Made by a program: the position numbers and the translations under genes. Under the pieces are notes generated by a model, which was not told the origin of the DNA, ran no database searches, and saw nothing but the letters and a program-made list of their open reading frames with translations. Positions 21,323 through 60,200 of a stretch of 64,000 bases of DNA are shown piece after piece. This stretch comes from Halioglobus sp. Lineage in GTDB: Bacteria; Pseudomonadota; Gammaproteobacteria; Pseudomonadales; Halieaceae. Numbering within the stretch: the stretch's first letter is position 1; every line of letters begins with the position of its first letter. The stretch covers positions 42,984 through 106,983 of the forward strand of contig CBDHGD010000002.1 of NCBI GenBank assembly GCA_965262875.1, written 5' to 3'.

Positions 21323-21339
21323 TTTCTTGATAATGTGGC

Positions 21340-22068: not shown

Positions 22069-22292
22069 GTGTTGCCTCCCCTCCGTCCGTGTGTAAAACG
22101 TTCTTTATTGCTCATCTGGTACCGAACCCAATGGCTTTCGATGAACCATTCAAAGCGCTTCCTAGCCTTGACGATGGTGCAGTCGATATGGCCTTGATTT
22201 CATGGTGTGCGATTCCAATCCGCCTAATATCCATTAGGCGACGTTTGATATCTGTCGCTTCCAGTAAACTGCGACCCATCTCGACCAAGTTG

Positions 22293-23444: not shown

Positions 23445-23469
23445 GCCGAACCTCCTTCTTGGTTGGACG

Positions 23470-24264: not shown

Positions 24265-24278
24265 TTGAAATACCTCAC

Positions 24279-25160: not shown

Positions 25161-25444
25161 CCGATTGCCCCACTTCGATGCCCAATTGTTGCGCCGATCA
25201 CGTCGTCGGGAAGACCAAGCAGATGTTCTGAAAATAAGGCGACAACACTGCCGTTTAGCATGCCCGAGATTGCCCTGAGAGAGCACAGACCACGTGCGGC
25301 ACTGCTGATCGATAGATAAACGCAAAACCGTACCGTTGTATGATTGCTCAGAGAAATCTTCATGTCCTTTCTGGTGAGCCATGAAACCCACCGGCAGTAT
25401 GGAGGCCATTGTTACCTGAATACAATTGTTGCAGGCACAATACT

Positions 25445-29582: not shown

Positions 29583-29722
29583 ATAAAATAAATGCACCTC
29601 TGTCGAGACTTTTATCAGACAATTGTCGATAACATGGGATATGACCGCTTTATGGTAACTGCCCAGGTACCCTAAGGAATAATTCTCTTGCCTGAGGAAT
29701 CCCGATGTGATTCATTAAGATT

Positions 29723-30014
29723 ATGATTTTTTCAAACGCACCCAAAGGTTATGTTTCCGTTGAGGCTTATGAAGAGCTGAAGCAGAAGAATGCACAAACG
29801 ATAGCCCTGCTTGTGGCTCGCATTGAAGACCTTGAGCGTCGCCTCAGCTTGAACAGCAGCAACAGTAGCAAGCCGCCTTCAAGCGACGGCCTAAAGAAGC
29901 CCAAGGCTGAACCCAGAACCAAAAGTCTGCGGAGAAAATCCGGTAAAAAGTCAGGCGGGCAGAAAGGCCACAAGGGAAGCACCCTGTGCCAAACGGCAGA
30001 TCCCGATCATGTTG
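29723..30014 (+). pseudogene. IS66-family transposase, N-terminal 97 codons
   Basis: ...LNSSNSSKPPSSDGLKKP...GGQKGHKGSTL is typical of the IS66 TnpC N-terminus. The frame then runs into the inverted copy. Confidence 0.75.
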
Positions 30015-30467
30015 TTCCCCACAGTGGCCGCAAAGGCAGACATGTGCCCTGTGTTCCGTTGTCACCAGGGGTTGTGGCTCGGGCAGGTCAAACACCTGTC
30101 GTGCGGCGTAATCCTCTGCCATTGATGGCGACAGCGGTGTGCCACATTGCCCGCAGACAGAAGGAAAGTGATCTTCAACATGATCGGGATCTGCCGTTTG
30201 GCACAGGGTGCTTCCCTTGTGGCCTTTCTGCCCGCCTGACTTTTTACCGGATTTTCTCCGCAGACTTTTGGTTCTGGGTTCAGCCTTGGGCTTCTTTAGG
30301 CCGTCGCTTGAAGGCGGCTTGCTACTGTTGCTGCTGTTCAAGCTGAGGCGACGCTCAAGGTCTTCAATGCGAGCCACAAGCAGGGCTATCGTTTGTGCAT
30401 TCTTCTGCTTCAGCTCTTCATAAGCCTCAACGGAAACATAACCTTTGGGTGCGTTTGAAAAAATCAT
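30015..30467 (-). pseudogene. IS66-family transposase, N-terminal ~151 codons
   Basis: Same N-terminus, continuing through ...CGQCGTPL...RQVFDLPEPQPLVTTEHRAHVCLCGHCGE (zinc-finger region) up to the junction at 30015. Confidence 0.75.
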
Positions 30468-30535
30468 AATCTTAATGAATCACATCGGGATTCCTCAGGC
30501 AAGAGAATTATTCCTTAGGGTACCTGGGCAGTTAC

Positions 30536-32752: not shown

Positions 32753-33133
32753 CATCTTGCCTCTCCGCTGCACCGGGCATTGCGCCATCACAGTGCCGGG
32801 ATATTCGAAGCCGAGCGTATATTCGGGCGCGCGATTGTAAACCATGACGGGCGCTCTGTGCCGGTGCGCTTCATCGCCGAGCAGCATGTACGCGAGGATT
32901 GCCGGCGGATCCCGTCCGTGGCCGACTGGCTGCGGCATATTCCGGTGGAGCCCTGGATGGTCAACGGGGTGATCCTGCCGGATACAGAACCGGTGGGTGC
33001 TGATCCGGACGCCGACTGGCGCGCAGCTGTGGCAGCGGGCCAGACCACATTGGGCTTGCGGGACTGGCTTTGCCAGACTGCCCTGCGTCTTAATGAGGCG
33101 ATGGATCGGGAGGATAGGCTTCCAGCCGCCTGA
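32753..33133 (+). pseudogene. 5'-truncated duplicate of the 6926-7408 gene
   Basis: Encodes the last 126 residues identically; there is no upstream coding continuation. Confidence 0.8.
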
Positions 33134-33149
33134 CCAATCGAAAGAGCGG
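32753..33149. repeat. ~397-bp direct repeat, copy 2
   Basis: See 7028-7424. Confidence 0.9.
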
Positions 33150-33168
33150 GATCAACCCGCTCTTTTTC
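33143..33168. terminator. bidirectional hairpin terminator between convergent genes
   Basis: AGAGCGGG-ATCAA-CCCGCTCT followed by TTTTT. Confidence 0.6.
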
Positions 33169-33609: not shown

Positions 33610-33875
33610 TAGCGTTCAAGGACAGGGTGTTTTGTTGCTGTGATACCGCTCATTTCTCTGGCGGCATCATCAAGAGCCTGTTTCAAATCATCCGGCAAAT
33701 CTGCCGGGTGACAAGATACCCTGTCATCTATAGATTTGTACCGCTCATAATCCTCTGCGGAAATCAGAACAACGCTTTCGCGTCCATAGCTTGTTACCAT
33801 CACCGCTCCGCGTTGTGCTTGGGATTGGTAGCGGCCAAAATTCTTCTGCAATTCCGAGGCTGTTACTGTTGTCAT
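33609..33875 (-). CDS. Phd/YefM-family antitoxin
   Basis: TVTASELQKNFGRYQSQAQRGAVMVTSYGRESVVLISAEDYERY. Confidence 0.75.
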   Translation of the reverse strand: MTTVTASELQKNFGRYQSQAQRGAVMVTSYGRESVVLISAEDYERYKSIDDRVSCHPADLPDDLKQALDDAAREMSGITATKHPVLER

Positions 33876-34080
33876 AAAACCAGCTCCTTTTTCCGTATAT
33901 TACACAACTTACGGAAAAAAGCAAACGGTGTTGACTGTTATGTTGTGGCATGCGGGTTCCGACCCAGTCCCAAAATTTCGCGCCACCCAGCCTCAAAAAG
34001 TCAAAGAAAGCTTTGTTTCCAGGTGATCCCGTTCCCGAAGGGGGAAGGGGGTTTTAACCATCTATCACAAGGAAACACCT

Positions 34081-34461
34081 ATGAAACTTCTGACCAAAAC
34101 CCACCGTATGCAACTGCTCGCCAACGGGCGCACTATGGCGCAGGCGGATATTTCCGGAACCGTAAAACCGGTTGTTAAACTGTTCATGCCGGATGGCGGG
34201 GCCACGTGGCTGCTGGCCTGGTTGGAACCGGAGGATCCTGATATCGCTTTTGGACTCTGCGATTTGGGCCTAGGTTGCGCTGAACTCGGCACCGTCACCT
34301 TAAGCGAGATTGCCAACTTGCGTGGGGTCTTGGGTCTGCCGCTTCTCGGGCATGTAATACCCTTCCAGCCAATGGTCGAGCGTGATCGCTTTTTCAAGGC
34401 GGATCGCAGCCTGTCTGATTATGCCAAAGTGGCCCGTGACGCAGGCTATATTGCCGCCTGA
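34081..34461 (+). CDS. DUF2958-domain protein carrying an 11-codon palindromic-unit insertion
   Basis: PVVKLFMPDGGATWLL...AFGLCDLGLGCAELGTVTLSEI...GLP[LLGHVIPFQPM]VERDRFF. Confidence 0.75.
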   Translation: MKLLTKTHRMQLLANGRTMAQADISGTVKPVVKLFMPDGGATWLLAWLEPEDPDIAFGLCDLGLGCAELGTVTLSEIANLRGVLGLPLLGHVIPFQPMVERDRFFKADRSLSDYAKVARDAGYIAA

Positions 34462-34672
34462 CACAGACCACTAACACAGACACGGAGACATGGGCGCGGG
34501 GCTGGCATCAGCGGTCCCGCGTTCATCCACGCCAGATTGCAACCATCAGTCTTTTCCGGCCCCGTCATCGCTTCCCGACAACTGTCGCGCCCGGCTCCCT
34601 AAAGAAAAGAGCGGGGCTTTTGGTTTTTGTGATTCCAATGGGGGATCGAGAAACACAAAATGGAGAAACACG

Positions 34673-36079
34673 ATGACCACCCAAAATATGAACACCCTGC
34701 TGAGCGATTGCCGGATTGCCCTGAACAAGCTGACCCTGCATCCGCGCAACGTGCGGGCCGGCAGTATTACGGCCTATGCGGCGGCGGCGATCACACCGCT
34801 GGCGGCCAATATCGCCCTGCGCGGCTTGCTGCAACCGCTCGTGGTGCAAAAGCTTGAGGATGGCACTTACGGCGTTGTTGGCGGTGGCCGCCGTCTGGCC
34901 GCGCTCAAGACACTGGCGGAAGATAAAGCCGCCAAAGGCTTCGGGAAATCCATGAAAGTGGCCTGTCGGGAGATGTCCGGCGACGAGGTTGCGCTGTCCA
35001 CCGTGAGCTATTCGGAGAATGCGTTGCAACTGCCGATGGATGCGCTGGATCGCTATGAGGCGTTTGCCGCGATGCGCGATCAGGATGGTGCAAGCATTGA
35101 TCTGATCGCGCGCAGTTTTGCGATTACAGAACGGCAGGTGAGGGAAGCCCTGCGTCTGGGCAATATCCACGTCGATATCCGCGATGCGCACCGATCCGGT
35201 CAAATCAACCTTGAAGCCTTGCGGGCGTTCGATGCGCACCCGGATCCAGAGGTGCAGCTGGAAACCTTCACCGGTCTCGCACAGGAACACGGGGCTGTCA
35301 CATCCTGGCAGGTGCGCCAAGCGTTTCAAAACCGCTGGGTGCGGGTTGGCGATGCGGTTGGCGCGTTTGTGCGCGAAGCTTATATCGCCGCAGGGGGCGA
35401 GGTTCTGGCCGATCTGATCGAGGAGGACAGTATTCTGGCCGACAACAGCCTGATCACCAAACTGCTGGCCGAAGACCTTCAGGCGCGCGCGGAGGCAGAA
35501 CGGGCGCGGCTTGGCTTTGCCTGGGCGGAATATCGCACAGAAGCCCGCCGGGACAGTTTCAGCGATTACGGGCGGCTCTATCCTGAGGCGCTTGATCTCG
35601 ATGACGCCACGCAAGCCAGGGTGGATCAATTGACCGAAGAGTTGGATGCGATCAGTGCAGACTATGAAGCGTCCCCGGATGCCGAGGCCGAAGCCGCACT
35701 TGAGGCCCGTCACGCGGTGCTTGAGGCGGAGATCGATGCGTTGACGCAAGGCTACAGCGCAGGCGATCTGGGGCTTGGCGGTGTTATCGCGGTCTGGGAC
35801 CGGTGCGAGGTGAAGTTTTTTGGCGGCATGGTACGGCCGGAACAAATGCCGGATCGCAATACGGACGATCAGGTCGGGTCCGGGGACGGCACCACGGCCA
35901 ATACCGCACCGGACACAGCTGTCGGGCCAAAGCTGTCTGCCAAGCTAGCGGGCGATATGGCACATATCCGTACAAGGGCTGTGGGGCTGGCCCTGGCGTA
36001 ATCGCCCGAAGTGGCGGGCGATTACGCCTGCTATACGCTGATCCGTCAGGTTCTGGGGGATTGGAACTATAGCAATGCG
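34673..36079 (+). pseudogene. ParB/Srx-like N-terminal domain protein, 5' part (nonsense codon, then transposon interruption)
   Basis: LHPRNVR...GGGRRLAALKTL ParB box. An in-frame TAA at 35999-36001 is followed by 26 more open codons up to the insertion point. Confidence 0.7.
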
Positions 36080-36150: not shown

Positions 36151-37032
36151 ATGTTCATGTTCAATTTTTACAAGGCTTGTTTTTCTAAAGCGTTTTCTGG
36201 AAAATTCTGGATGGTTGAAAAGTGGACGGGTGGTTTATCTATACTTGCTCTCGTTTTTACACGGCTATTGCCAACGCCAGAGTGGATGGCGACAATGTTA
36301 GAAACAGACGGCCCACTATATTTTTTCTTGGTAATATTCGTCCTTACGGTTTTCTTGGGCTTAGTTGCCGCGCCTTATGCACTTTACAAAGAGCAGTTAG
36401 ACGCGCGTATTGAGAGCGAAGCGAAAAGAAAACCGACCCTTAATGTTTTTCTAAAAAATTCTACTTCTTCAGACGTTTTGCGTGGTGCTACTTCTCAAGC
36501 ACTTTCTGGGAGTAGACAAACTGTAATTACTAATTCAATTCCGAGTGTTTTAAGTGTTACCTGTAAAAATACAGGCGAAACCAAAGCATTAAACTGTGTC
36601 GCCAGAATAGTATCTGCAAAGCAAGTAGACGCAGAGCCAGACAGAGTTTTAGACATAACAGAATCTATAATCCTACCTTGGGATCAGTGTGATCCAGAAA
36701 AAAGCTTAACCAAAGATATGCCCCCAAGTGATATATCCAGAATTTGGATTGCCAGTATCAATGCCAGCGGCCACTTGTGGATTTTTAGGGAAACTGGGAA
36801 ACTTCCAGTGGAATACCAAAGGTTTTTCGGATCTGCTGGAAAATACGAAGTTATTATACAGATTGACTCAGACAACTGCCCACCAATCCAGACAATGATC
36901 CGCATGATTTCACGTGAATATGAAGGCACTGGGAGTGGTGTACATAAGGGCGAAGGGGAGATTTCTATTTTATCACAAGGCTCTCCACGCCTACCGCCCC
37001 CGGACTCAACCACTACCGACTGGCGTCGGTAG
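36151..37032 (+). CDS. hypothetical membrane protein (2 N-terminal TM helices + beta-rich domain); last 6 codons come from IS200
   Basis: LSILALVFTRLL and LYFFLVIFVLTVFLGLVAAPYAL hydrophobic helices; no motif recognised. The frame runs into the IS200 end at 37014. Confidence 0.45.
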   Translation: MFMFNFYKACFSKAFSGKFWMVEKWTGGLSILALVFTRLLPTPEWMATMLETDGPLYFFLVIFVLTVFLGLVAAPYALYKEQLDARIESEAKRKPTLNVFLKNSTSSDVLRGATSQALSGSRQTVITNSIPSVLSVTCKNTGETKALNCVARIVSAKQVDAEPDRVLDITESIILPWDQCDPEKSLTKDMPPSDISRIWIASINASGHLWIFRETGKLPVEYQRFFGSAGKYEVIIQIDSDNCPPIQTMIRMISREYEGTGSGVHKGEGEISILSQGSPRLPPPDSTTTDWRR

Positions 37033-37429
37033 GATGAGGGATGTGATTTTCCAGGTACTGAAGTACGAAGTCTTCTGTGATCACACCGTTGGTGGTTGAA
37101 AAATACCCACGCCCCCAAAAGTGACAGCCCCAGTAGCGTTTCTTCAGGTGTGTAAACTCGCGTTGGACTTTGTGGGATGAGCGTCCTTTCATAAGTCGCA
37201 CCAAGTCACTGATCGCCAGTTTTGGCGGAACGGACACAAACATATGAACGTGGTCGCTGGAAAGGACGCCTGTGATTATATCGACGCCTTTCTCGCTGCA
37301 AACTTGTTTGATGATGTCACGCACCCGCAATTGAACCGCCCCACGCAGAACCTTGTAGCGATATTTTGTTGTCCAAACGATGTGATAGCGATGGTAGAAA
37401 ACGCAGTGTTTCCCAGTGTCATATTGCAT
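37013..37429 (-). CDS. tnpA: IS200/IS605 Y1 transposase TnpA
   Basis: 138 aa, identical to 3087-3503. Confidence 0.9.
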   Translation of the reverse strand: MQYDTGKHCVFYHRYHIVWTTKYRYKVLRGAVQLRVRDIIKQVCSEKGVDIITGVLSSDHVHMFVSVPPKLAISDLVRLMKGRSSHKVQREFTHLKKRYWGCHFWGRGYFSTTNGVITEDFVLQYLENHIPHPTDASR

Positions 37430-37567
37430 AGTCTTATCCTCCCTAAAAATGAGCCTTATTCCTTACGGCGGCTCATTTTTAGGGAGGATAAGACTATAAC
37501 CGATTCTTTCGTGCTAAAGCACTCCCGTCTGAAGACGGGGGGTTGGAACCAATGAGTGGATACTCAA
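37014..37567 (-). mobile_element. IS200/IS605-family element, copy B (inverted relative to copy A)
   Basis: Identical to 2949-3512. Confidence 0.85.
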
Positions 37568-39627: not shown

Positions 39628-40272
39628 TAGCAATGCGACCAGCCTGCGTGCAGATGTGGCCAGTCGGGGACCAGACGAGGTGAGTGGCTCGCTGGCGCAG
39701 ATCGAGGAGGTGTTAGCAACGCTGCGGGACGGGCTGGAGCTTGACTGGATCGAGATCGAGGGTGCGGACGGGTTTGCCACATTCCGGGCATTGCCTGAGG
39801 GATCCCGCGCGGATCTTCTGGCCTATGCGGTGGCGCAGACGCTGGAACCGAAGCTGGTCACGGAGTTGCGCGATCCGGTGCGCGAGACGGTCGAGATCGC
39901 GGTTCTGCCCAACCTGCGCGCTGTCTGGACGCTCGACGCGGCGTTCCTGAAGCGTCTGGCCAAATCAGACCTGCTGGAAATCCTGCGTGATATGGATATG
40001 CGCACCGAGGCGCAGACCTACCAAAAGGCGAAGAAGACAGGGCTTGTGAGCTATATGGTCAAGTTGTTTGCCGAACCCTTTGCCACGCTGACCGATCGCC
40101 AACGTCAGGCCGTCAACAGCTGGTGTCCGTCGGTGATGATGGCCGCGCTGCCAACGGAAACCCGCCGTTCCGAGCGTCAGGTGCAATTGCAACAATTCTC
40201 AACCCCGCTGGATCTGGCGTTTATCGTGGCCATGGCAGCGCGGATCACAAAGGCGGATGTGGTGCTGGACCC
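39628..40272 (+). pseudogene. ParB-like gene 3' part, running into a short N6-methylase-like N-terminal fragment
   Basis: The frame continues from the duplicated SNA codons. It ends with QFSTPLDLAFIVAMAARITKADVVLDP, which resembles the TP..LA.....D.VLEPSAG start of the methylase/helicase genes of conjugative elements. Confidence 0.6.
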
Positions 40273-41894
40273 GCGCCTTCATGGCGGGCGAAAAAGCCAT
40301 CCTGATTTTCTCGGATGCAGGTGGCACCGGACGCTCCTACCATGCGGCAGCTGGCGGGTCATCCACTGTGGGGTCATCCACTGCCTCGGCAGGGCTTGCT
40401 TGCAAGCGCCGTCGGACTGGCAGGGCCAAACTGGCCCGAGAAGTCGAGAGAGGGGCAGACGGGTCATCAGCCGGGGCCACAACCCCGAAACGGCGGCGGC
40501 ATTATCTCATGGAACCGGGCTGGCGGGCGGATGCGGCGATCCAGGGGCTGGGGCGCACCCATAGGGCGGCGCAGGTCTCGGCGCCGCATTTCCGGGTTTG
40601 CACGACGGATGTGCACGGCGAAAAACGCTTTACCTCGACCATTGCGCGGCGGCTCGATACATTAGGCGCGCTCACCAAAGGCCAGCGCGAAACTGCCTCG
40701 CAGGGCATGTTCCGGGCCAGTGACAATCTGGAAAGCCCGATTGCGCGGGCCTGCCTGCGCAGTCTCTACAGCGATATTGTGCGCGGCGAGGCCGTGAACC
40801 CACGGAACGGCGATACGCTGACCTATGAGACATTCTGCGACTGGACGGGATTGAGGCTGGTCACACGCGAGGGCGCGCTGTTGGAAGAACTGCCGCCAAT
40901 CCAGCGGTTTCTCAACCGGGTGCTGGCCTTGCCGATTGCGCTGCAGAATGCGGTGTTCTCTGCACTGATGGAAAAGATCAATCTGGCTTTAGCCCGCGCA
41001 CGCGATGCGGGGCGGCTGGATGTCGGGCTTGAAACCTTGCGCGGCGACCGGATTACGGCGGGCGCGGCACAGGAATTGCGCTGTTGCGAGACCACAGGAG
41101 CCATCACATCGCTGGTGCCGGTCAAGGTGGAACAGCGCCGGAGCTATCTTTCTGCGGCGGCGGTACTGGAGCAGCATCCATCGCTGACACCGATGCAGAA
41201 TACCGCCAGTGGCGCGGTGGCACTGGTCAGCCCGCGCCCGCGTCAGGTGTTTGACGAGGCGGGCGGGGTTGGCTTTGAACGGCGCATTATTCGTCCGACG
41301 GGCAGCGGGTTTATCGAAGAGCAGCAACTCACCCGCTCCAACTGGGAAGATGTGGACAGCGCGGCATTCCGTAAGCTCTGGGATGCGCAGGTGGCGGAGT
41401 TGCCCGAGATGGAAGTCACCGAGCTGCATCTGCTGACCGGGCTGATCCTGCCGATCTGGAAGCAGATCCCGGGGCAGAACACCCGGATTTACCGCGTGCA
41501 GCCCGAAAGCGGCCCGGCGTTGCTGGGGCGCGCACTTGATGCCGGTCAGGCGGCGGTTTTGCGCGGGCGGTTCATGGATCTGGCGGTGGCGACGCCGGAA
41601 GAGATGCTTGCCGTGGTGATTAGCACGGACCGGGCGGTGGAGCTCGGCGCGGGTCTCAGCCTGAAACAACGCCGTGTGGCGGGGTAAAAACGGCTGGAAC
41701 TGACAGGGGCAGGGACAGCAGAAATGGCCTGGCTGAAATCTTTGGGCTGCTTTACCGAAATCCACCAGTACCAGCTGCGGCTGTTTGTGCCGATGGATGA
41801 CCCGGCAGCCGATGACCCGGCAGCCGATGACCCGGTTTCCGATGAGAATGCGGCGCTGCGGATTGTGACCGAAATCGTGGCCCGGCAGGCTTGA
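40257..41894 (+). pseudogene. Strawberry-notch (Sno)-type helicase, C-terminal third only, with in-frame insertions and a premature TAA
   Basis: GEKAILIFSDAGGTGRSYHA ... RRRHYLMEPGWRADAAIQGLGRTHRAAQVSAPHF ... GEKRFTSTIARRLDTLGALTKGQR. An in-frame TAA lies at 41685-41687, followed by 69 more open codons. Confidence 0.75.
41796..41835 (+). repeat. 15-bp tandem repeat x2.7 (GATGACCCGGCAGCC)
   Basis: Read directly; encodes DDPAA DDPAA DDP. Confidence 0.85.
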
Positions 41895-41931
41895 GCCGGG
41901 TCATGGGTCGGGGCAGCACGGTCTTTTTTCT

Positions 41932-42210
41932 TCAGCAATCTCCTCTTCTGGCCGGACGCGCGGTCACGCCCGGCTCGACAGGGTCGATTATGACAACGGG
42001 ACTGGCCTCACCGCAGTGCCGGCAGTGTATTCCGGCCTGGAAACAGCCGATGGTGGTGGCGCTGCCAAGCTGTTTGATCAGGTCGGAAACGCGCAGGGTG
42101 GCACGGCGGCAGCAGGCAGTTTCTCGGGCCAGTTGGCCCTGTCAACCAGCGGGGCACTCCAGGCGCAGATCGCCACCAGGCAGGTCGCGGAGCTGTGTAT
42201 CGGGGGTCAT
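41932..42210 (-). pseudogene. small zinc-ribbon paralog P2, interrupted by a palindromic unit carrying an in-frame TGA
   Basis: MTPDTQLRDLPGGDLRLEC[PAG*QGQLARETA]CCRRATLRVSDLIKQLG...CRHCGE. Its start overlaps the P1 stop (ATGA). Confidence 0.4.
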
Positions 42211-42564: not shown

Positions 42565-42620
42565 CCTTGCAGAACTGGCCTTGCAGAACTGGCCTTGCAG
42601 AACTGGCCTTGCAGAACTGG
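42565..42620 (+). repeat. 14-bp tandem repeat x4 (CCTTGCAGAACTGG) inside ardC copy 1
   Basis: Read directly. The three extra copies add 42 bp, which stays in frame. Confidence 0.9.
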
Positions 42621-44138: not shown

Positions 44139-44177
44139 CAGGATGGGCGGCGCGATGTGACCAGCGCCGCCCGTTAA

Positions 44178-44221
44178 AGTTGAACGACTTTTCTTTGAGA
44201 CCAAAATTAAGTCGTTCAACT
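44178..44221. repeat. short (internally deleted) copy of a MITE with GTTGAACGACTT termini
   Basis: AGTTGAACGACTT-N18-AAGTCGTTCAACT. Confidence 0.6.
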
Positions 44222-44323
44222 ATTTGAACACTCCATTCCCTGAGCAGCGTCCCGCTCGAAAGTGCGAGGACGCTTTTTTATGGGTGATCCCGATGGGGGA
44301 TTGTTGAATGAAAGGAAATCACC

Positions 44324-44737
44324 ATGTCGAAACCCGATAAAACCGTCCATATGAAACGCCTGGACGACAAGCGCTGCCGTGAGTTGCAAGTGTATTACGA
44401 TGCTGGCGGACAGAACGTCTGGAATGGTCGCCCAAAGCCGAAAGGCATTTATTTTGCATCCCACTGCTTTGAGCAGGCCGAAGGATCCACGACGCGCAGA
44501 TGGCAGAGCGGACCCGCTGCCTCGGCAGGGCTTGTTTACAAGCCCAAGAGAGGGAAGGGCGATGGCTATATTCTGGTTGTGCCGCTGGAACGCTACAGTG
44601 CCAAACAGCTGCGGCTTGTGCGGGGGCGTGTCGAAGCGAACGCTGCCATGATCCACGGTATTCTGGATCGCGGGGACCGGTTTGATGCCCTCGTTGCGAT
44701 CCTGCGCGGCACCATGGAAATCATTGCCGTCGCGTAA
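44324..44737 (+). CDS. hypothetical protein containing a palindromic unit in frame
   Basis: ORF preceded by GGAAATC. The unit GCTGCCTCGGCAGGGCTTGTTTACAAGCCCAAGAGAGGG lies at 44517-44555. Confidence 0.4.
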   Translation: MSKPDKTVHMKRLDDKRCRELQVYYDAGGQNVWNGRPKPKGIYFASHCFEQAEGSTTRRWQSGPAASAGLVYKPKRGKGDGYILVVPLERYSAKQLRLVRGRVEANAAMIHGILDRGDRFDALVAILRGTMEIIAVA

Positions 44738-45638: not shown

Positions 45639-45677
45639 CGCCTGCATGGAAACGAAGGGCATCGAAACTGCGGATAA

Positions 45678-45790
45678 AGTTGCGCGACTTTTCTTTGATA
45701 TCGTATCTCCTGCGCTTTTTCAGAGACCGCATATGCATCAGCTTGTGCATTCCGGGAAAGCGCGGGAGGCTAAACTTAAGTCGTTCAGCT
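45678..45790. repeat. full-length copy of the GTTGAACGACTT-type MITE
   Basis: Collinear with 55909-56083 except for the palindromic-unit insert present there. Confidence 0.6.
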
Positions 45791-45889
45791 CTGGCATGCC
45801 GCCGCAGGATCATCCTTCCATTTTGGCAACTGGATTGTTCTCTTGTGCGGGAACGGTCCTTTCGGGCTGACGGGTTTCCAGGGGCAGAC

Positions 45890-46104
45890 ATAGGTCGCCC
45901 TGCCCCGTAGGACTGACAGATACCGTAATGGGGCTTGGCCTCGCCGCAGTGCCGGCAGCGTATTCCAGCTTGAAAATAGCCAAGCGTGATGGCACTTCCA
46001 AGCTGTTTGATCAGGTCGGAAAACCGTTGGCCCTGTCAACCAGCGGGGTACTCAAGGCGTAGATCGCAATCAGGAAAGGCTCTGATCTGTGTATCGGGGG
46101 TCAT
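45890..46104 (-). pseudogene. zinc-ribbon paralog P3, same interruption as P2
   Basis: MTPDTQIRAFPDCDLRLEYPAG* ... SDLIKQLGSAITLGYFQAGIRCRHCGE. The end is uncertain. Confidence 0.3.
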
Positions 46105-46687: not shown

Positions 46688-46922
46688 TGTTTTTTCCTTT
46701 GTAAGATTTACCAGTTTGGAAGTGTGTATTCCCTGTTTCATGAGGCAATACAACCAATAAATTATGCGCCGCAATATTCATCTGTCAGCATCAATTTTTG
46801 GGCATAACCCCTGCGGTGAAAATTACTGATTCAAATCAGTGTCAGCGGTGTGTCTCTGCGGCTTCAAAGAAAAAGAAATCTTCGTGAAATTGCGTTTTGT
46901 TTTTGGGTTATTTTGCCACCAC

Positions 46923-47100
46923 CTCTCGACTTCTCGCACATGTGATGCGCCATTGGCCGGCAGGGCCAACGGGCTTTTCGACTTCTCGCGCATGTGATGC
47001 GCTGCCAGTCCAATAGGGTATGTGATGCCCTGCCATCCCAACGGGCCCGAGAGGCTGCCAGTCCAGCGGAGCATGAAATGCCCCGCTGGTTGGCAGGGTC
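46923..47100. repeat. array of four palindromic units
   Basis: GCACATGTGATGCGC, GCGCATGTGATGCGC, GGGTATGTGATGCCC and GGAGCATGAAATGCCCC, each with CTCTCG/TTCTCG leaders and TGCC...CCARYGG tails. Confidence 0.8.
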
Positions 47101-47163
47101 GGCTTGCCGTTTACCGGATCATGTGGCTACAGTCTCTGAATAGATCATAAGGGAAAAGCACAG

Positions 47164-47451
47164 ATGGCGTTTACGGGGCGGCGGCGCAAGACTGAGCGGA
47201 AGCGTACAGCGCATCCGGCGGTTCGAATTGAACCTGATGCCGCACTGCGGGTTGAGGGCCAGCGGCTGGAACATTTTTGTTACGCGACAACGCTCCGGAT
47301 CACCTGCGCCTGCGGGCATCAGGGTATTTTGCCTGTGAGCGCGCTCCGTGATCGCTATCCCCGTGGAACCCGGATTAGCGAAGTGCTTGGACATGTGCGT
47401 TGCTCACGCTGTCAGGGCAGTCGCATTCAATCGGTCAAGACGCTCGACTGA
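47164..47451 (+). CDS. small zinc-ribbon protein P4
   Basis: ...LRITCACGHQGILPVSALRDRY...VRCSRCQG. Confidence 0.45.
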   Translation: MAFTGRRRKTERKRTAHPAVRIEPDAALRVEGQRLEHFCYATTLRITCACGHQGILPVSALRDRYPRGTRISEVLGHVRCSRCQGSRIQSVKTLD

Positions 47452-47660
47452 CACAGCGGCGGCCTTTTTGAGGCCTGTTTTTTTCTTCAGCACTCACCTG
47501 ATCTGTCAGGTTCAGTGTCCCGCTCTGGACATATGCGGCAGAACAATTGCTATAAACCGAGAAAACCCGTGACAATTCAACTTTGTTGACACATGCCATT
47601 CAAAATGGGAGAGACCCCGAAGGGCTGTAAACCCGATGATTTCAACGAAGGTGTCAAAAC

Positions 47661-48227: not shown

Positions 48228-48980
48228 GTCAACTTATGGCGCATAAAGTCACAAATACACCCCAAAAAGGCAGGGTTTGTCATATCCGTATTCGGGTTAT
48301 GCGGCTCTTTGAGGGGCTGAGCGCGACACGCTAACATACGGGGGTGCCGTCCGGTGTCGTCGCGTTTTCCAGCTCCTGGCCGAGGCCTATGCGGCCGCGT
48401 AGTGCCAGCCTGTCACCAGTCGCGCCGCCTGTCATGACTCGGGGAGGCGCGCCTGTTTTTCTTCAGCAATGGTTTGTTCTGTGAGGTCAGTCAAGCGACC
48501 CTCACGCATGGCCCCGGCAAGCCGGAACCACGCGAGACGGCCCCGCGCGGGTGCCGCGCAGGCAGGCCGCAGCGCGGCCAGGCGTCATCCCAGCCGATTG
48601 CCAACCACTCACCGCAGTCTTCAGGTGATCCGTTGTGCAATGGTTTCAAGCCTGCTGCCTGTCTGTCGCAGATAAAAACCAGCGTCAAGGATCACAAAAC
48701 TTTTACAGGGGAGCGTCAGGACTGCTCTGATACGGTGCCGTTCCCCACACCGGCCGCCTTGCAAACACAGCCCTGCTTGCAGGCGGGCAAGCAGGGCCGC
48801 GTCTTTCAGGCGACCTGTCTCCTTCGGGGCTTCAATGCATGTGCCAGGCGTCATCCCCTGAAAAACTTTTGCGCCCGGCAAGCCGGCGGCTGCGCCGTCC
48901 CTGACACTGGTTTTTCTCCACGCCTGCCCGTCAGCAGGCCACCGCAATCGGGCGGGTGGTAAATTAAGGAGTTAAACCCA

Positions 48981-51738: not shown

Positions 51739-51963
51739 ATGACCCATAAATATTACAATGTTTGTATCGCCACCACAGGCAAAGACGACAAAACCTACTT
51801 CACCAAAGTCGGCGCGGCGTTTCCCGGCAAAGACGGCAGCAAAGCCATCATGAACATCAAACTCGATGCCCATTCCCTCAACGGCGAATACGTCCTCTTT
51901 GCCTCTCGGGCATGTAATGCCCTGTCGGCCAGCGGCACCCAAAACCAAAACCGGCAACGATGA
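51739..51963 (+). CDS. small hypothetical protein with a palindromic unit in its 3' part
   Basis: MTHKYYNVCIATTGKDDKTYFTKVGAAFPGKDGSKAIMNIKLDA...; unit at 51902-51935. Confidence 0.35.
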   Translation: MTHKYYNVCIATTGKDDKTYFTKVGAAFPGKDGSKAIMNIKLDAHSLNGEYVLFASRACNALSASGTQNQNRQR

Positions 51964-53482: not shown

Positions 53483-53962
53483 ATGTCAGAGAAACGCAAG
53501 AGGCTGCCAAGCCGACGCCCGTCCGAAGTGCGTAAAATCAAGATGCAGAATGGCCAGTCATTATATGTGACTTTGGGATATGACCCCATGGTTCCGGATG
53601 CGCCAAAAGAAGTGTTTTATGATCGCGGGTTTCGGGAGGGCGCAGAGTTGCAATTCATCGCCAACGATATGTGCATCATGATCTCTTTGCTGTTGCAGGC
53701 GGGGTATACAGCCAAGGATATTTCCAAGTCGCTTTCAAAAACCACTGTGGAAACGCCAACGGGTTTCTCGACTTCTCGCGCATCACATACCCGAGAAGCT
53801 GCCAACCCAACGGCTGAGGTGTCACAGCACGGCTCGATCGTAGGGTTGATCGTGGAGCAACTACAGATTGCCCCGTCATGGATGAAGGAAGCCGGGAACC
53901 GCACCGGCATCAATGCCGATGTACATAAAGCGATTACAGGAGGTCATCATGCAAGATTATAA
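53483..53962 (+). CDS. hypothetical protein (TSCPD-like N-terminal pattern, weak) with a palindromic unit in frame
   Basis: RLPSRRPSEVRKIKMQNGQSLYVTLGYD...EVFYDRGFREGAEL...MISLLLQAGY. Unit at 53764-53813. Confidence 0.35.
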   Translation: MSEKRKRLPSRRPSEVRKIKMQNGQSLYVTLGYDPMVPDAPKEVFYDRGFREGAELQFIANDMCIMISLLLQAGYTAKDISKSLSKTTVETPTGFSTSRASHTREAANPTAEVSQHGSIVGLIVEQLQIAPSWMKEAGNRTGINADVHKAITGGHHARL

Positions 53963-54602: not shown

Positions 54603-54926
54603 CATGCGCGGCGTCCAGTGCGGTTTTGCCGGACGTAAACGCATTGGGCCAGGTGACTGTCTTGCGTTGTTGTTTCAAAATATAGTTGACCTCAAGGGTC
54701 CAGTCAAAGGTATCTGCGGGTCTGCTGATACTGATGAAGGCCGGGCCTTTTTTGTCATGAGCAGAGTTTCATACGGGCTGAATTCGATTTCGTCTGTCAT
54801 AGGGTTGAACGCCTCAATTCCGGTCTCGTGTGCATTTTTCCCGGAATGCACAAGCTGTCATATGTGGTCTCTAAAAAGATTTATCACAGGCCTTCAAAAT
54901 GTCAAAGAAAAGTCGTTCAACTTTAC

Positions 54927-55508
54927 TCACTCCGGTTTTGTTTGAATTGATTTTCCAGGGTCGTTTGGCGTCGCCCCCTCTCTCGGGGATGTAATGCTTT
55001 TCCGGTGCAACGATATTTTTGGGGACCCGGCGTTTTGGCGTTCCCGCCTTTTTTTTGCGATTTTTACGCGCCGCTGCAATTTCACCTGGTAGAATGCGCG
55101 GTCATCGTTTGTAACCTCGCCAGCAGGTTCCATATTCAGGTTGTAGCGTTTGGGTATGGCACACATGGCGCTGATGTATTGTAAGGATCCCAGATACTGA
55201 CCGAGGATTGTGTTAAGCACTTTCTTCGCTTCGCTGCCTTCTTCGATGTTATAGCGTTTTTTCATATCCGCGTCGAAGCCTATGGCGGCGGGAAAGGCGT
55301 AGGGGCTTCGGAAGTAGACCGGCAGTTTCGCGTGGGTTTCGAGATTCAGAACCGCGCACAGACGGGTGCGTATATCGTCGATGAAACCCGGGTGGAACTT
55401 CATGTAGTGCAGCTTGTCGTCGTTTTTCGGATGTCTTGACGTCCTGGCCGTGTCGATGCCGGTTGTGTCGGTTTGTGTTTTTTGCGGCATTGTTTTTGCT
55501 TCATTCAT
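54927..55508 (-). CDS. ProQ/FinO-like RNA-binding protein (tentative)
   Basis: KLPVYFRSPYAFPAAIGFDADMKKRY...LGQYLGSLQYISAM...RYNLNMEPAGEVT resembles the FinO-domain pattern. Basic C-terminal tail. Confidence 0.45.
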   Translation of the reverse strand: MNEAKTMPQKTQTDTTGIDTARTSRHPKNDDKLHYMKFHPGFIDDIRTRLCAVLNLETHAKLPVYFRSPYAFPAAIGFDADMKKRYNIEEGSEAKKVLNTILGQYLGSLQYISAMCAIPKRYNLNMEPAGEVTNDDRAFYQVKLQRRVKIAKKRRERQNAGSPKISLHRKSITSPREGATPNDPGKSIQTKPE

Positions 55509-55783: not shown

Positions 55784-55908
55784 GGCCTGTTTTCCAGTTT
55801 TGTGGATGGGTAAAGCCTCTCGAAATTGCCGATCGTCCCCGTTTGTAACAGGCTTACGTGACCGGATCAATCACACATCCAAAAGGCACACACATCCAAA
55901 AGGCTTTG

Positions 55909-56083
55909 ACCTGCACGACTTTTCTTTGATATCATATCTTATGTGCTTCGCTGGACTGACAGCCTCTCGGGCTGGTTGGCCCTGCCGGCCAATGGCGCAT
56001 TTCATGCGCGAGAAGTTCAGAGACCGCATATGCGTAGCTTGTGCATTCCGGGAAAGCACATGACCAAAATTAAGTCGTTCAGC
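55909..56083. repeat. GTTGAACGACTT-type MITE copy carrying a nested palindromic-unit insert (55950-56015)
   Basis: Collinear with 45678-45790 on both sides of the 66-bp insert. Confidence 0.6.
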
Positions 56084-56088
56084 AATAG

Positions 56089-56210
56089 TTGGCAGTTTCT
56101 CGGGCCCATCGGACTGACAGCGCATCACATGCGCCGCTGGACAGTCAGTTTCTCGGGCCCGTTGGGATGGCAGCGCATCACATGCGCGAGAAGTCGAGAG
56201 CCCGTTGGCG
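56089..56210. repeat. array of two palindromic units
   Basis: Two copies of GGCAGTTTCTCGGGCCC...CAGCGCATCACATGCGC. Confidence 0.8.
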
Positions 56211-56497: not shown

Positions 56498-57054
56498 GGA
56501 TCGGTTTCCAATTTCGGGGTCATGCCGCAAGGTGCCACAGTTTGCCGCTTTTGCCAATCCTGTAAAATCACATAAACTGCACGTTTCGCCAAAACTCGCC
56601 AGCCTTGCCAAAAGCGCATAGGCTGCCAAAACGTGAGCAGCTGAACGCCAGATTTTCGGCCTCATGCGGGTGCGGTTTTCGGGCTGGCTTGCGGCATCCC
56701 GATCCAGACGCAAATCCCGCCGCGTGATTTTGGCATCAAATTCGGGCCTCGGCGTGCGTTGTTTTCTGCCCCGAATTGACCACCCCATCAAGGTTGTTTC
56801 CGGGCTTGCCGCGCGTCCGGTTCTGCGCTTGCCATCCGCATGACCGTTCCACGGATTGCAAGGTTTTGAGTGCGCGCAAATCTGCCAATCTTCCTTGTTT
56901 TCTTAGCATTCCCGCGCCAGCGGGCAGGCTTTGACCAAATAGGTCGAAGCCTTTTCGAGCGATTGAGAAACGCCTCTGATGTTTCAAACTGTTGTCGGGT
57001 TTACCGGCAAATTCCAAGGGCGCATCTTTGGACAGGTTTGCGGGAAATGTGCCC

Positions 57055-57156
57055 GCGTTGCCCCAAAAGCCAATCCTATATGAAAAACGAAGTTTTTAGG
57101 AAGGCGCGTTGCCCCAAAAGCCAATCCTATATGAAAAACGAAGTTTTTAGGAAGGC
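57055..57156. repeat. 51-bp perfect tandem repeat x2 upstream of traA
   Basis: GCGTTGCCCCAAAAGCCAATCCTATATGAAAAACGAAGTTTTTAGGAAGGC twice, followed by a partial third GCGTT. Confidence 0.9.
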
Positions 57157-57164
57157 GCGTTTGT

Positions 57165-57186
57165 ACATTGAATTTGTATTCAATGT
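57165..57186. promoter_or_regulatory. 9-bp stem hairpin, candidate oriT inverted repeat
   Basis: ACATTGAAT-TTGT-ATTCAATGT, ending 22 nt before the relaxase ATG. Confidence 0.4.
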
Positions 57187-57208
57187 GAAAGCGGTGTATT
57201 TAGAGGCC

Positions 57209-60200
57209 ATGGCAGTCTATTATTTCAATCGCAGTTCACTAGGAAGAAAGTCAGGTGGAAACGCCGTGGCTGCAGCTGCCTATCGCCATGCGACGCGGAT
57301 GACCAATGGGCAGAGCGGGGAGACGAGAGACTATTCCGGCAAGAAGCCAGAGCTGGTTCACGCGGAGATTACCCTGCCCGCAGATGCGCCCGCCTGGGCG
57401 GCAATGCGCTATAGTGGAGAAGACGTTGATGCGGCGTCCATGCAGCTTTGGAATGATCTGGAACTTCGCGAGGATCAACACAACAGGCGCGCTACTGCGC
57501 AATTGGCAAACAGCTTCACCTGCGCGCTGCCGGCAGAACTGTCGCATAAACAAAACATCGTTTTGGTGCGGGATTTTGTGCAGACATCGCTGGTGGGTGG
57601 TGGTGCCGTGGCGGACTGGGTTATCCACGATAAAGGTGACGGAAACCCCCATGCGCATGTGATGACCACACAGCGCACATTGGGGGAAAACGGGCTGGAT
57701 CAGAAAATCCGCACCTACGTGGATCGGCGTCAGGACATCGTAAATCTGCGGTTTAACTGGGCCTGTGCCGCCAATACTGCGCTTGAAACGGCCGGGTTCG
57801 AGGCGCGGATTGATCATCGGCGGCTGGATGTGCAGGGCATTAAACTGGGAGCGATCAGCTTTAATGCGGAGATCGCCGCAAACATCGAACAGGGTGATGC
57901 CGCCTACCGTGTGAAGCAACGGGTGATTGAGGCGCGGCTGGAAAACGAGACTTACCTGATGGCGCATCCGGAGCACATGCTGACGGTTGTGGCGGCGTCC
58001 AATCCCTTGTTTACCAAGGCTGATCTGGAGCGCGGGTTTCAGCAGTATCTGCCGACCAGTGTGGGGATTGACGGCATCGAGGGGCTGATGGGCCTGGCGA
58101 TGGCCAGTGACGATCTGGTGCGTCTGGATCGCAAGTCATCGCGGGGTGAGGCGTTCATGACCACGCGGGCCGTGGTGGAGATGAACCGCCGGATGGAGCG
58201 CGATGCGCTCACGATGGCGCAAAGCCGGTTGGTTCTGGGGGCTGGCCATGGGTACGAGGCGTTGCCGGATACGCTGTCAAACGCGCAGCGTATGGCGGTG
58301 CGGTCGATGGTGTCGTCCCGGCGTCTGACCCTGGTGACGGGTTATGCAGGGGCGGGTAAAACCTTTGCGGTCAAAGCAGCCGCAAAGGTCTGGGCAGCGC
58401 GCGGGTTTGCGGTTCTGGGTGGTGCGATTTCGGGAAAGGCCGCACAGGAGTTGAGCGGCATCGAGGGGCAGGTTGCGACGCTGGCGCAATGGGAGGCCAA
58501 GTGGGATCGCGGCGCGCGGCCGGCACAGGGGCGGTTTATCTTTGTGATGGATGAGGCCGGCATGGTCGGCACGGCAATCTGGTCGCGGATGCAGGCGCGG
58601 ATTAAGGCGATGGGCGGCAAGCTGATTGCGGTGGGGGATGCCGCGCAGTTGGCGCCGATACAGGATACGGCGGCGTTCAAGCATCTGACGAAGCTGGTGG
58701 GCCAGGTGACCATCGGTGCGGTGCGCCGGCAGGAGGATGCGGGCGACCGGCGGGCCACGGAAATGCTGTCGCGGGGCGGGGCGCAGGCGGCTCTGGCGAT
58801 TGATCACTATGCGCGCAAAGGGGCCATCCGGTTCGAGAAGAACCTTGGGAAGGCAATTGATGCGCTGTCCAAAGCTTATTTCGAGCATGAGGGCATGGAC
58901 CGCATTGCGCTGACGCATCTCAATGCGGATGTGGACGCTCTGAATGCGGCCATCCGGATCGAGGCTCTGGCGCGGGGGGTGGTGGATCACAAATCGCAGG
59001 TTTCCTATGCGCGCTTTGTGCCGGGCGCAGGGGCTGAGCCTCTGGTTCTGGGCATCGGGGACCGGGTGCGCTTTACCCGCCCTTACCGGGAGGCTTCGGT
59101 GACCAAATCGTCGTTTGCTTCGGTTATCGCCGCCTCGGAAACGCAGCTGATTTTAAGTGTGGACGGTCAGAGCGGGGTTGTTGCAATTGATCCGCGCCGG
59201 TTTTTGCATTTTGACTACGGCTATGCGGCCACGGTGCATAAATCGCAAGGCATGACGGTGGCCAATAATGTCGAGGTTTTGGTCACGTCGCAGTTTGACG
59301 CGCATCTTCTGGATGTCGCTCTGAGCCGTCACAAACAAACGGTCCGGATGTGGGTGCCGCAGGACAGTGTTGAGGGTCTGGCTGACATCAAGGGAATGGT
59401 GCAGCGCTCCAGCCTGATCGATGTGGTGCAGGCGAATGACCCCCCTGTTTTGGGCCGGATGTCGCGGGATATATCAGATGTGGCGGTGGGTGCACGGGTG
59501 GACCGGATTGCGGCGGATGCCCAAGGGCACATGACCGTGCCGCAGGGTCATCTGCCGCAGGGTCATCTGCCGCAGGGTCATGTTCTGGTGACGGGGTTGG
59601 CTGGCGATGCGCATCTTACCCAACAGGGGATGCGCATGGCGGGGCTGCTGCGGGCCGGATATGAGCCGGGCCAGGCGGATCTGGCGGATGATCCGCGTGG
59701 CTACGCAACTGATCCCTTGAAAGTTGTCGATGATCTGCTGGCGGAACAGGGGGTGTTCAGGGCCGCTGATGTGGCGGCACGGCTTGGCGCGGTGGTGCGT
59801 GCGCCGGATCTGTTTATGCGGCTCTTTGCGCAGGCGATGTCGCATCCCGATCTTGTGATCCTCAGCGAAGAAGGTTTGCGCGGTGAAGGGCGGGTGTATT
59901 CCTCAAACGCCCAGATAGCGCAGGTGGCCGGATTGATGGATCGCGGTGTCACTCTGGCGGTCGGCCAGGGGTTCGGGGCGGTGGATCCGTCAGTGGTTGT
60001 GGCAGCCTGGCAAGCTGCGGGGCTGGATTCTGCGGTGTGCGCGGGGCTGGAGTATGCGCTGTGGCCCTCGCGCATTGCACTTCTGGAGGAGATCGGCACC
60101 CGCCAGAGCGTGCGCGTTACGCAGGTTTTGGCGGAAATTGCGCGGCAAACCGGCACCCGGGTGATTGTGGTCAGTGCGGATGCACGCGCCGCCACGCGGT

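Follow-up and report, generated by a model that had tools for sequence, protein, structure and literature searches.

A stretch of 64 kb from contig CBDHGD010000002.1 (assembly GCA_965262875.1, Halioglobus sp.), referred to below as the window, carries a short hairpin-bearing repeat at many dispersed positions, and the question raised by this locus is what the repeat is and by which means it has come to lie there. The loci and contigs that are related to the window or carry the repeat unit, and were compared with it, are given as L numbers. What repeats here is a very small non-autonomous transposable element, 34 nt long, present as copies, as copies nested in one another and as rearranged pieces. 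Mobilisation in trans by an HUH (histidine-hydrophobic residue-histidine) enzyme is the likeliest mechanism, to which we give a probability of about 0.55.

Modules and hairpin of the repeat unit

About 14 sites in the window are occupied by units or compound arrays. The canonical unit is 34–36 nt long and consists of three modules, E-H-L, where E is (CTCTCGA)CTTCTCG, H is a short hairpin and L is CTGYCRNYCMAVYGG (E' and L' denote the complements), so that CTTCTCG is followed by a 5–6 bp hairpin and then by CTGYCAG..CAAYGG. The core GSGCATNNNATGCSC has 7 matches in the window compared with 0.08 expected from 100 dinucleotide shuffles, and a chance origin of the palindrome is excluded since none of the 100 shuffles reaches 7. 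A hidden Markov model (HMM) built from canonical units and run on the window gives 9 strong matches (E≤1e-3) and about 12 partial ones, all at or near the sites described below, and in a repeat search the arrays at 2.8, 47 and 56 kb share mutual direct and inverted repeats of 28–62 nt with 79–96% identity. An earlier reading of the letters (the sequence-only reading) had seen the same unit at least 14 times, as a dispersed family in both orientations with shuffled modules, and this description is borne out: the arrays at 46923-47100, 55950-56015, 56089-56210 and 2846-2893 are each as it described them, its clean example at 51902-51935 is exact, and the segment at 2836-2850 is the inverse of the one at 4909-4923, with 13 nt in common. 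Most of the singletons that it listed also hold, except that 7429-7462 is weak, with an E-like motif, an imperfect hairpin and no HMM match, and that 46024-46048 is an L tail only. At 13302-13340 and 44517-44555 the flanks are recognisable but the hairpins differ (GGCCAT/ATGGCC and GGGCTTG/CAAGCCC respectively).

Stems were compared in units chosen on the E and L anchors alone, and what lies between these anchors is nearly always a perfect stem of 5–7 bp with a varying sequence, the types being GGCAT/ATGCC, CGCAT/ATGCG, GGCCA/TGGCC, GGCATGC/GCATGCC, GCGATGC/GCATCGC and TGGTTTG/CAAACCA. In an alignment of 17 sequences (A5) 96% of the cells pair and three pairs show a change in both partners; covariation scores 0.27, where shuffles give 0.054 and none of 500 reaches 0.27, and pairing drops to 26–47% when the registers of the same alignment are slid. 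In the hairpin the pairing is therefore conserved but not the sequence, whereas the single-stranded flanks are conserved in sequence, which argues that a folded single strand is recognised rather than a double-stranded dimer site. The presumed active strand (L'-H-E') is composed of C[GA]YTGSCWGRCAG (13 nt), a 5–6 bp stem with a 3-nt loop (13 nt) and CGAGAAGS (8 nt), and in all units the foot of the hairpin reads CTCG on one strand and, on the opposite strand, (A/G)CAG. As single-stranded DNA the stem of the unit is weak, at -6 to -7 kcal/mol, and the compound forms fold into multi-hairpin junctions. An intrinsic terminator was rejected, as there is no T run and CTGYCAG.. comes directly after the hairpin in every copy. 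An Rfam family or a tRNA was likewise rejected: no tRNA gene was found in the window, Rfam gives no match at gathering score there, and in 46700-47300 none even at E≤1.

Insertion boundaries, target flank and distribution

The limits of the mobile block are given by transposase genes that carry a unit. Exact removal of 34 nt restores the ORF in five of the seven transposase families concerned; in comparison with intact homologues it restores the IS5 sequence ..QRKGY-RN.. (the hyphen marks the junction); the same removal restores ..YHRYH-IVW.. in two lineages of IS200, ..GNCH-DNAVAES.. and ..RFI-EEH.. in IS3, and ..RNGY-RPR.. in IS256. The unit integrates as an exact 34-nt block, with no target duplication and no terminal inverted repeats, and the empty sites are seamless. 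On the L'-H-E' strand the left flank is of the types CGTTATC, CGCTATC, GGCTAYC and GGATATC, each read up to the junction. ATC directly precedes the junction in 9 of 23 independent contexts (1/64 expected; p=4e-11), TC in 13 (p=1e-10) and C in 19 (p=4e-8), and the right flank shows no consensus among the same 23. The preference is for insertion 3' of (S)GYTAYC, and across the subfamilies no target rule can be derived beyond ..RTC at the junction.

The same bond has been used more than once. A search with the repaired IS5 transposase gave 777 protein matches, the best 120 of which are almost all uninterrupted proteins of 335 aa, and the filled lineages are interleaved among 116 uninterrupted proteins. 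In nucleotide sequence the empty L115 is 97.9% identical to the filled L061 and the empty L116 is 98.3% identical to the filled L068; L061 and L068 are 18.5% different from each other with an identical 34-nt insert, and lineage-specific single-nucleotide polymorphisms (SNPs) are kept 6–10 nt from the junction. The filled and empty pairs together with the retained SNPs point to two or more independent events at one phosphodiester bond, either gains or seamless losses, without co-conversion of the flanks. IS200 shows recurrence likewise (L019 compared with L050, and L105 compared with the window's own IS200): in the related IS200 of L105 a 34-nt unit follows CATCGCTATC, identical to the unoccupied target in the window, where CATCGCTATC is followed by AC at 3123-3134 (+) in the IS200 tnpA gene and again in the second copy at about 37382-37393 (-). 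A single ancient IS5 insertion tolerated by read-through, frameshifting or ribosome hopping is unneeded given the ~98% identical uninterrupted alleles. Both halves of the IS5 gene stay open in diverged filled copies, and neither a conserved slippery site nor matching take-off and landing codons were found at the filled IS5.

Among plasmid backbones 89–99% identical, whole units are present or absent at precise filled and empty sites, and 10 of 32 homology breakpoints fall within the 5.5% of the sequence that units occupy (p=6e-6). The canonical 34-nt singleton CCTCTCGGGCATGTAATGCCCTGTCGGCCAGCGG at 51902-51935 (+), which lies at the 3' end of a 74-aa open reading frame (ORF; 51739-51963) and alters its C-terminus, is present in the window, L007, L018 and L037 and precisely absent in L010, L027 and L049, the flanks being otherwise ~98% identical. 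As judged from these alignments the units are polymorphic insertions with recent mobility in the plasmid backbones.

Further copies, for which the sequence-only reading had proposed a scan, were found in other genomes and in metagenomes. The scan used the exact pattern TCTCGSGCATNNNATGCSCTGYC and covers the GSGCAT type only. In a collection of species-representative genomes 52 stretches match, mostly from Rhodobacteraceae (Amylibacter, Aliiroseovarius, Planktomarina, Silicimonas, Sinisalibacter), together with the mis-binned plasmid contigs, and the metagenome scan gave 54 contigs with the pattern. Single-unit queries of PLSDB found only two plasmids of cultured strains, from Roseobacter litoralis and Parasedimentitalea marina, both with variant units; the array as query found nothing in PLSDB, and a literature search for unit sequences returned unrelated primers only. 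Beyond the plasmid group units occur as singletons, almost always inside transposase genes, namely of IS5, IS3 (at least three positions), IS66, IS256, IS110, IS200 and an unassigned rve type (L079). Pfam assigns the repaired proteins to IS3 (rve), IS256 (Transposase_mut), IS110 (Transposase_20) and the rve-type L079, and IS5 to DDE_Tnp_1, and the IS66 assignment comes from Pfam on an uninterrupted ORF of L022, in which the reading frame runs on through the unit. Two lineages of IS66 translate the unit as part of their ORF, each in a different frame, and an Amylibacter metagenome-assembled genome (MAG) with contigs of 0.57–0.92 Mb holds 5 matches to the pattern, all in one IS66. One IS66 lineage has five identical copies in one MAG; this insertion sequence (IS) has thus adapted to its passenger and is still multiplying. 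The unit is seen inserted in ISs and in the end of an IS630-type miniature inverted-repeat transposable element (MITE), which rules out that it is a piece of a single longer IS or MITE already catalogued.

In IS5, IS200 and IS256 genes that carry the unit in the L'-H-E' sense, such as those of L100, L019, L105 and L107, the ATG of the 3' arm (ATGCCCGAGAAG, translated MPEK) shares its frame with the remainder of the gene downstream and has GGCAGGG 6–7 nt upstream of it. Insertion after the first base of the codon next to TAY probably creates this arrangement as a side effect, but truncated products are conceivable. The hairpin ATG as a portable start codon (MPEK..) was rejected, as it is explained by the position of insertion after TAY and is therefore not independent evidence for a function.

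Mode of mobilisation and its alternatives

Trans-mobilisation by an HUH enzyme is taken as the likeliest mechanism because the unit is an exact block without duplication or inverted termini, has specificity on the 5' side only, leaves seamless alleles and has a hairpin conserved in shape only, with an invariant CAG. The ends of IS200/IS605 elements and the repetitive extragenic palindromes (REPs) are recognised as a hairpin together with a tetranucleotide guide at the 5' foot, and the ISs insert 3' of a short target (PMC6006769). The unit would similarly move on single-stranded DNA by "peel and paste" of the HUH single-tyrosine (Y1) type with the enzyme supplied in trans, as for IS200/IS605 ends and for REPs with their REP-associated tyrosine transposases (RAYTs), and CAG, invariant at the hairpin's 5' foot, would be the guide for the target ending in TC. 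Position by position the foot (A/G)CAG is complementary to the commonest targets, TGTC at 4/4 and TATC at 3/4 positions, and this tetranucleotide may have such a guide role. On the conjugative plasmid to which the window belongs, new copies landing beside or inside old ones would have built the arrays, recombination between copies would add rearrangement and shuffle plasmid modules, and outside plasmids the copies would mostly be passengers in ISs that carry them between genomes. The fuller proposal, that the unit is a 34-nt single-hairpin, site-specific transposon of single-stranded DNA on conjugative plasmids of marine Rhodobacteraceae, which repeatedly disrupts transposase genes of many IS families at (S)GYTAYC, thereby silencing or hyperparasitising ISs, and is HUH-driven and possibly coupled to the single-stranded stage of conjugation, is tentative and stands at clearly less than even odds.

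Several observations weigh against HUH mobilisation or against the evidence for it. The only Y1/HUH genes seen in the window or the fetched loci belong to ordinary IS200 copies: a phmmer search with the Y1 transposase against all ORFs of ~0.5 Mb of these loci (rather than whole genomes) found IS200-type genes only, and a crude regular expression for the HUH motif, applied to the ORFs of L001, L007 and the window, found IS200 only. One hairpin would have to serve both cleavages, where IS200/IS605 elements use two, at the left end (LE) and the right end (RE), and there is no pairing between the proposed guide and the last four bases of the element (AAGS). At 51902 the flank of the window's own polymorphic unit is ..G(T/C)GC rather than ATC. 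Excision of 34 nt from IS66 breaks the frame, so that secondary changes would be needed there. Several array polymorphisms are bounded by direct repeats of 6–14 nt resembling E or L modules, and such array differences could come from slippage or recombination instead of transposition. The search pattern fixed 20 of the 34 positions, and the apparent conservation of the unit is therefore partly imposed by the search. Finally, the excess of transposase genes could be an ascertainment effect, ISs being multicopy and travelling between genomes: a unit in an IS is copied and carried along, intact siblings can still mobilise an IS that is disrupted, and such events are for that reason far likelier to be sampled. 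The excess may instead reflect real targeting of mobile or single-stranded DNA.

The candidate enzyme named in the sequence-only reading is the IS200 transposase that the window encodes twice. The two Y1 genes are real (3087-3503 (+) and 37013-37429 (-), both PF01797 with E=1.7e-40), their TnpA is an HUH enzyme, the copy starting at 2949 does lie 33 bp from the block at 2808-2916, and the insertion signature of the unit is of Y1 type. The two copies (2949-3512 and 37004-37567) are 100% identical, start with TTGAGT and end with GGTTGAGT, and at least five other contigs of the same metagenome carry identical copies as well. Their end hairpins (CCCGTC/GACGGG and CCGAC/GTCGG) are however unrelated to the unit, as are those of the IS200s of L019 and L105; TTGAGT is found at both ends rather than ATC, no unit occurs in ~95 kb around five of the other identical copies, and tnpA genes of related IS200s are themselves interrupted by the unit. 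The supposed association of units with Y1 genes accordingly fails for the window's IS200, and mobilisation in trans by this TnpA is very improbable. With no dedicated transposase, units might instead have spread, and arrays grown, through gene conversion between copies, microhomology-mediated repair, slippage in replication or template switching at hairpins. Arrays do differ by whole tandem units, flanks are chimeric at L011 and L016, and module-like direct repeats flank polymorphisms (the 14-nt GCCCGCTGGCGCGG at L018 5512, GGTTTC at 2836-2899, and the L-like CGCCAACGG and CTGCCAACCCAACGG at 53761), but exact 34-nt blocks sit in unrelated genes without homology to the donor, IS5 lineage SNPs 6–10 nt from the junction are not co-converted, and the one-sided conservation of ATC is not expected from slippage, which makes this origin of the family doubtful.

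Other explanations give the units a function for the plasmid. They might be pseudo-oriT or nic sites (oriT, origin of transfer), cut and rejoined on the transferred single strand by the plasmid's MOBP-type HUH relaxase. Units are concentrated in a block resembling a leading region, with two ArdC, ProQ/FinO, two HU and DUF2493 genes, the relatives are MOBP/MPF_T plasmids, and a hairpin followed by a conserved tail is the layout of an oriT; the tail, read as CCTG-CCA, presumably also resembles the nick region ATCCTG-C(CA) of RP4 and T-DNA borders, with the nick at the hyphen. Since the insertion boundaries lie 13 nt beyond the hairpin and not between CTG and CC, copies are found in chromosomal ISs of many genera and the window has no relaxase gene, we regard this as unlikely. 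Equally unlikely are functional cis-elements kept by selection, such as ProQ/FinO-bound leader RNA hairpins, mRNA stabilisers, iterons or operators, for which it may be said that arrays lie between promoter-like repeats and start codons (e.g. 46858-47164) or adjoin a rep-like gene (L030, L038), that a ProQ/FinO gene is present at 54927-55508, and that the covariation of the stem means selection or recognition of structure. Against this the units stand in both orientations relative to genes, break the frame in copies within seven transposase families, differ in presence among near-identical plasmids, and have neither a T run after the hairpin nor an Rfam match even at E≤1; a secondary cis function could coexist with mobility. 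Integron attC sites have R''/R' core sites RYYYAAC ... GTTRRRY, are 57–141 nt long, stand in uniform orientation and have IntI nearby. Units acting as site-specific recombination sites (attC-like, res or Xer/dif-like) that exchange gene modules would account for the homology breakpoints of related plasmids that coincide with units, for the resolvase gene abutting the block at 2836-2899 and for modules lying between direct units, such as a RelE gene in L049. The units nevertheless lack attC core sites and attC size, being 34 nt long, in both orientations and within ORFs, the stem covariation argues against a sequence-specific dimer site, and no integron integrase or tyrosine recombinase was found in the ~50 window ORFs scanned with Pfam, a set that does not include the ORFs at 14380-25409; exchange at such sites is highly improbable, and the identities attC, iteron and Xer/res site were ruled out on anatomy and context.

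Among known families, the unit works like REPs and their mosaic clusters, the bacterial interspersed mosaic elements (BIMEs), and like miniature elements derived from IS200/IS605, and is a member of neither as defined. Rickettsia palindromic elements (RPEs) are alphaproteobacterial palindromic repeats of ~100–150 nt that are inserted in frame inside protein-coding genes, and the intragenic position is the only likeness, the unit being 34 nt long and frame-breaking except where the frame is secondarily restored (IS66). The intergenic mosaic elements of Neisseria (NIME/dRS3), the BIMEs of E. coli and the Rhizobium-specific intergenic mosaic elements (RIMEs) of Sinorhizobium likewise combine short palindromic modules with linkers, in either orientation, into mosaic arrays and are hot spots of rearrangement, but, as compared by description only, they are intergenic and chromosomal and are not characterised by precise 34-nt insertions in coding sequence. 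The likening to REP, BIME or RIME elements in the sequence-only reading stands for the mosaic structure and mobile-DNA behaviour, while the defining features of REP and RAYT fail. Like REPs (21–65 nt) and the REP doublets that form hairpins (REPINs), the units are small, have a hairpin with sequence-conserved foot bases, occur as single copies, inverted pairs and mosaic clusters, and are non-autonomous with presumed Y1 HUH processing on single-stranded DNA (PMC6006769). The definition of a REP includes the tetranucleotide GT[AG]G or CGTC at the 5' foot of the hairpin (PMC6006769, PMC3733652), and RAYTs are almost never plasmid-borne (PMC5581495). The unit has no such tag and a stem of only 5–6 bp, its copies are intragenic and on plasmids and ISs, whereas REPs are extragenic and chromosomal, with tens to hundreds in each chromosome, Mb-size chromosomal contigs hold few copies of the GSGCAT-type pattern, and in the loci examined there is no RAYT gene, which in a REPtron is single-copy and has the repeats on its flanks. 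With IS200/IS605 elements and MITEs of the palindrome-associated (PATE) type the unit shares the lack of inverted termini and of target duplication and the seamless gain and loss, as well as insertion 3' of a short specific sequence and a hairpin with a guide tetranucleotide at its foot. It differs in having one hairpin in 34 nt, where the IS ends have distinct LE and RE hairpins, and in that no cognate tnpA was found, the IS200 copies examined being different in hairpins and target.

Unit sites, plasmid context and meaning

The array at 46923-47100 (+), which has a promoter-like repeat (46858-46898) on one side and a 95-aa gene (47164-47451) on the other, reads EE-H-L'-(GGCCAACGG)-EE-H-L-H-L-E'-L-H-L', with four hairpins of the GCAT/ATGC type and HMM matches at 46930, 46982 (E=5.7e-11), 47017 (6e-7), 47055 and 47071. 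Within it a 36-nt unit sits between E and H of an older unit (46975-47044). One whole 36-nt unit of the array is missing in L009, L014 and L052, extra units are present in L030 and L038, and the homology of relatives to the window begins at 46927, 47071 or 47078. In the array at 56089-56210 (-), E and L' modules accompany two units whose hairpins are GCGCATCACATGCGC (HMM matches at 56106, E=3.6e-7, and 56159, 1.9e-11); L046 has one additional 28-nt H-L block, and the counterpart in L018 is a 54-nt version between 14-nt direct repeats. Just before it, at 55944-56022 (+), lies a compound L'-E-H(GGGCTGGTTGGCCC)-L-H(GCGCATTTCATGCGC)-E' read from the sequence and the HMM, which folds into a three-hairpin junction (-18.7 kcal/mol, z=-2.2), and the block 55887-56200 is replaced by 22–23 nt in L018, L037 and L055. 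The compound EE-H-E' at 53761-53813 (+) is inserted directly 5' of the L motif CTGCCAACCCAACGG; a 45-nt insertion at 53761 is absent in L037 and L055, and the L motif is kept in the empty site.

At the other end of the window, a 60-nt compound (L' E .. L' H E') at 2836-2899 (-), with an HMM match at 2861-2894 (E=9.8e-12), lies in the end of the IS630-type MITE just downstream of the resolvase gene, and an uninterrupted form of this MITE (..GCCCGGAAACCGATCAAAAGC..) is found in L001 at 19833-19946. A different insertion of ~28 nt (L and H) stands at the matching position of the second MITE-end copy, at 4908-4939 (-), with an HMM match at 4921-4939 (E=0.005). With a TA duplication and AGAGYGTRTTGC as its inverted ends, the 112-nt insertion at L001 19833-19946 resembles IS630-type MITEs; both it and L001 20035-20117 are absent from related contigs, and the end of this MITE is duplicated in the window (2808-2925 and 4890-4971) around the IS200 and a 373-aa HTH_13 gene.

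The remaining sites are singletons, small compounds and diverged members. A singleton with two stem mismatches at 34342-34375 (+; HMM E=2.5e-7) falls in the 311-nt gap between the ORF 33627-34178 and the ParB-like 34490-36001, and is also overlapped by two ORFs of at least 100 aa, 34081-34461 (+) and 34065-34397 (-), which are ORFs and not gene-caller predictions. Two units with hairpins GGCTTGCTTGCAAGC and GGGCCAAACTGGCCC form a compound at 40381-40458 (-; HMM match 40409-40443, E=5.9e-8) within a remnant of a strawberry-notch helicase gene (Pfam Helicase_C_4 on 40257-41687), a compound also carried by the homologue L013. The diverged unit at 44517-44555 (-), recognised by reading the sequence, has the layout of the first half of this compound, with an L'-like CTGCCTCGGCAG, the hairpin GGGCTTGTTTACAAGCCC and E' as AAGAGAGG. 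A unit with the hairpin GGGCCAGTTGGCCC is located at 42113-42154 (+; HMM E=0.013); in the paralogous segment 45931-46106 there are 39 nt missing at the position of this unit, and the L tail at 46026-46048 (+; GTTGGCCCTGTCAACCAGCGGGG) is the paralogue of 42132-42154. Another diverged unit, at 13302-13340 (-) with the hairpin GGCCATGAAATGGCC, is read in frame within a 403-aa ORF resembling helix-turn-helix (HTH) transposases (12861-14072), copies of which in L002 and L006 are 98–99% identical across the site. The doubtful, degenerate member at 7429-7462 (+) lies exactly at the end of homology between two copies of a DUF6915 gene (the match to 33105-33150 stops at 7424).

The window is a segment of a roseobacter conjugative plasmid. 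Pfam finds ParA, a PIN toxin, a resolvase, the two identical IS200 copies, Entner-Doudoroff and sugar-uptake genes, and fragments of IS66 and IS1595, and the block at ~40–57 kb contains the strawberry-notch remnant and genes for two ArdC, DUF2493/YAcAr, two HU, ProQ/FinO and TSCPD proteins, which is typical of the leading regions of conjugative plasmids. The close relatives, a circular 83-kb metagenomic contig (ERZ26693861 ctg136711) and small contigs binned into two GTDB MAGs, share 46.9–57 kb of the window at 89–99% identity. More than 100 roseobacter plasmids of PLSDB share, at 100% identity, the 44 nt at 48863-48906 upstream of the DUF2493/YAcAr gene, and the one plasmid inspected, Ruegeria pSD25, is typed MOBP/MPF_T. 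A 32-nt imperfect inverted repeat at 48749-48818 precedes this stretch, and the region 48749-48906, which has no Rfam match, may be an oriT or a conserved leader.

Other repeats are present as well. Direct repeats of 32 nt (TTTTTTCTTCAGCA..) at 47479-47510 and 48455-48486 bracket a bactofilin gene module that is missing from the related plasmid L007, and they recur at 41924-41955 and 2101-2132, a second and unrelated family at module boundaries. Operator-like repeats with AAGTCGTTCA in both orientations are found at 44175-44223, 45675-45792, 54899-54925 and 56062-56086, and together with a 41-nt promoter-like repeat at 6412, 42449 and 46858 they recur upstream of leading-region genes. There is a perfect inverted duplication of 360 nt (29655-30014 and 30176-30535), a fragment of the IS66 N-terminal part (DUF6444) with arms 161 nt apart, an exact tandem duplication of 51 nt (57054-57155) and a 14-nt unit repeated four times in tandem (42565-42620). 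A giant ORF of more than 2377 aa (56870-64000) with 62–64% G+C and a strong GC skew runs off the end of the window, and its 2283-aa relative in L007 has no Pfam domain on record. L005 (ERZ26693861 ctg127489) is a 21-kb circle with a Rep_3 replicase, a type II Cas9-Cas1-Cas2 locus and several toxin-antitoxin pairs.

If the proposed mechanism is true, transposition by hairpin plus guide, as in REPs and IS200, would extend to an element of 34 nt with one hairpin, and the reading as a 34-nt transposon of single-stranded DNA would place it among the smallest mobile elements known. The habitat of such an element would be mobile DNA itself, the leading regions of plasmids and ISs, and not the chromosome, and it would be a case of mobile elements that parasitise and inactivate other mobile elements. 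The units would then also be a source of the module shuffling in roseobacter plasmids. They offer a simple explanation for many "frameshifted transposase" pseudogenes in assemblies of marine Rhodobacteraceae, and the unit together with its TATC flank is a precise, testable substrate for finding the enzyme.

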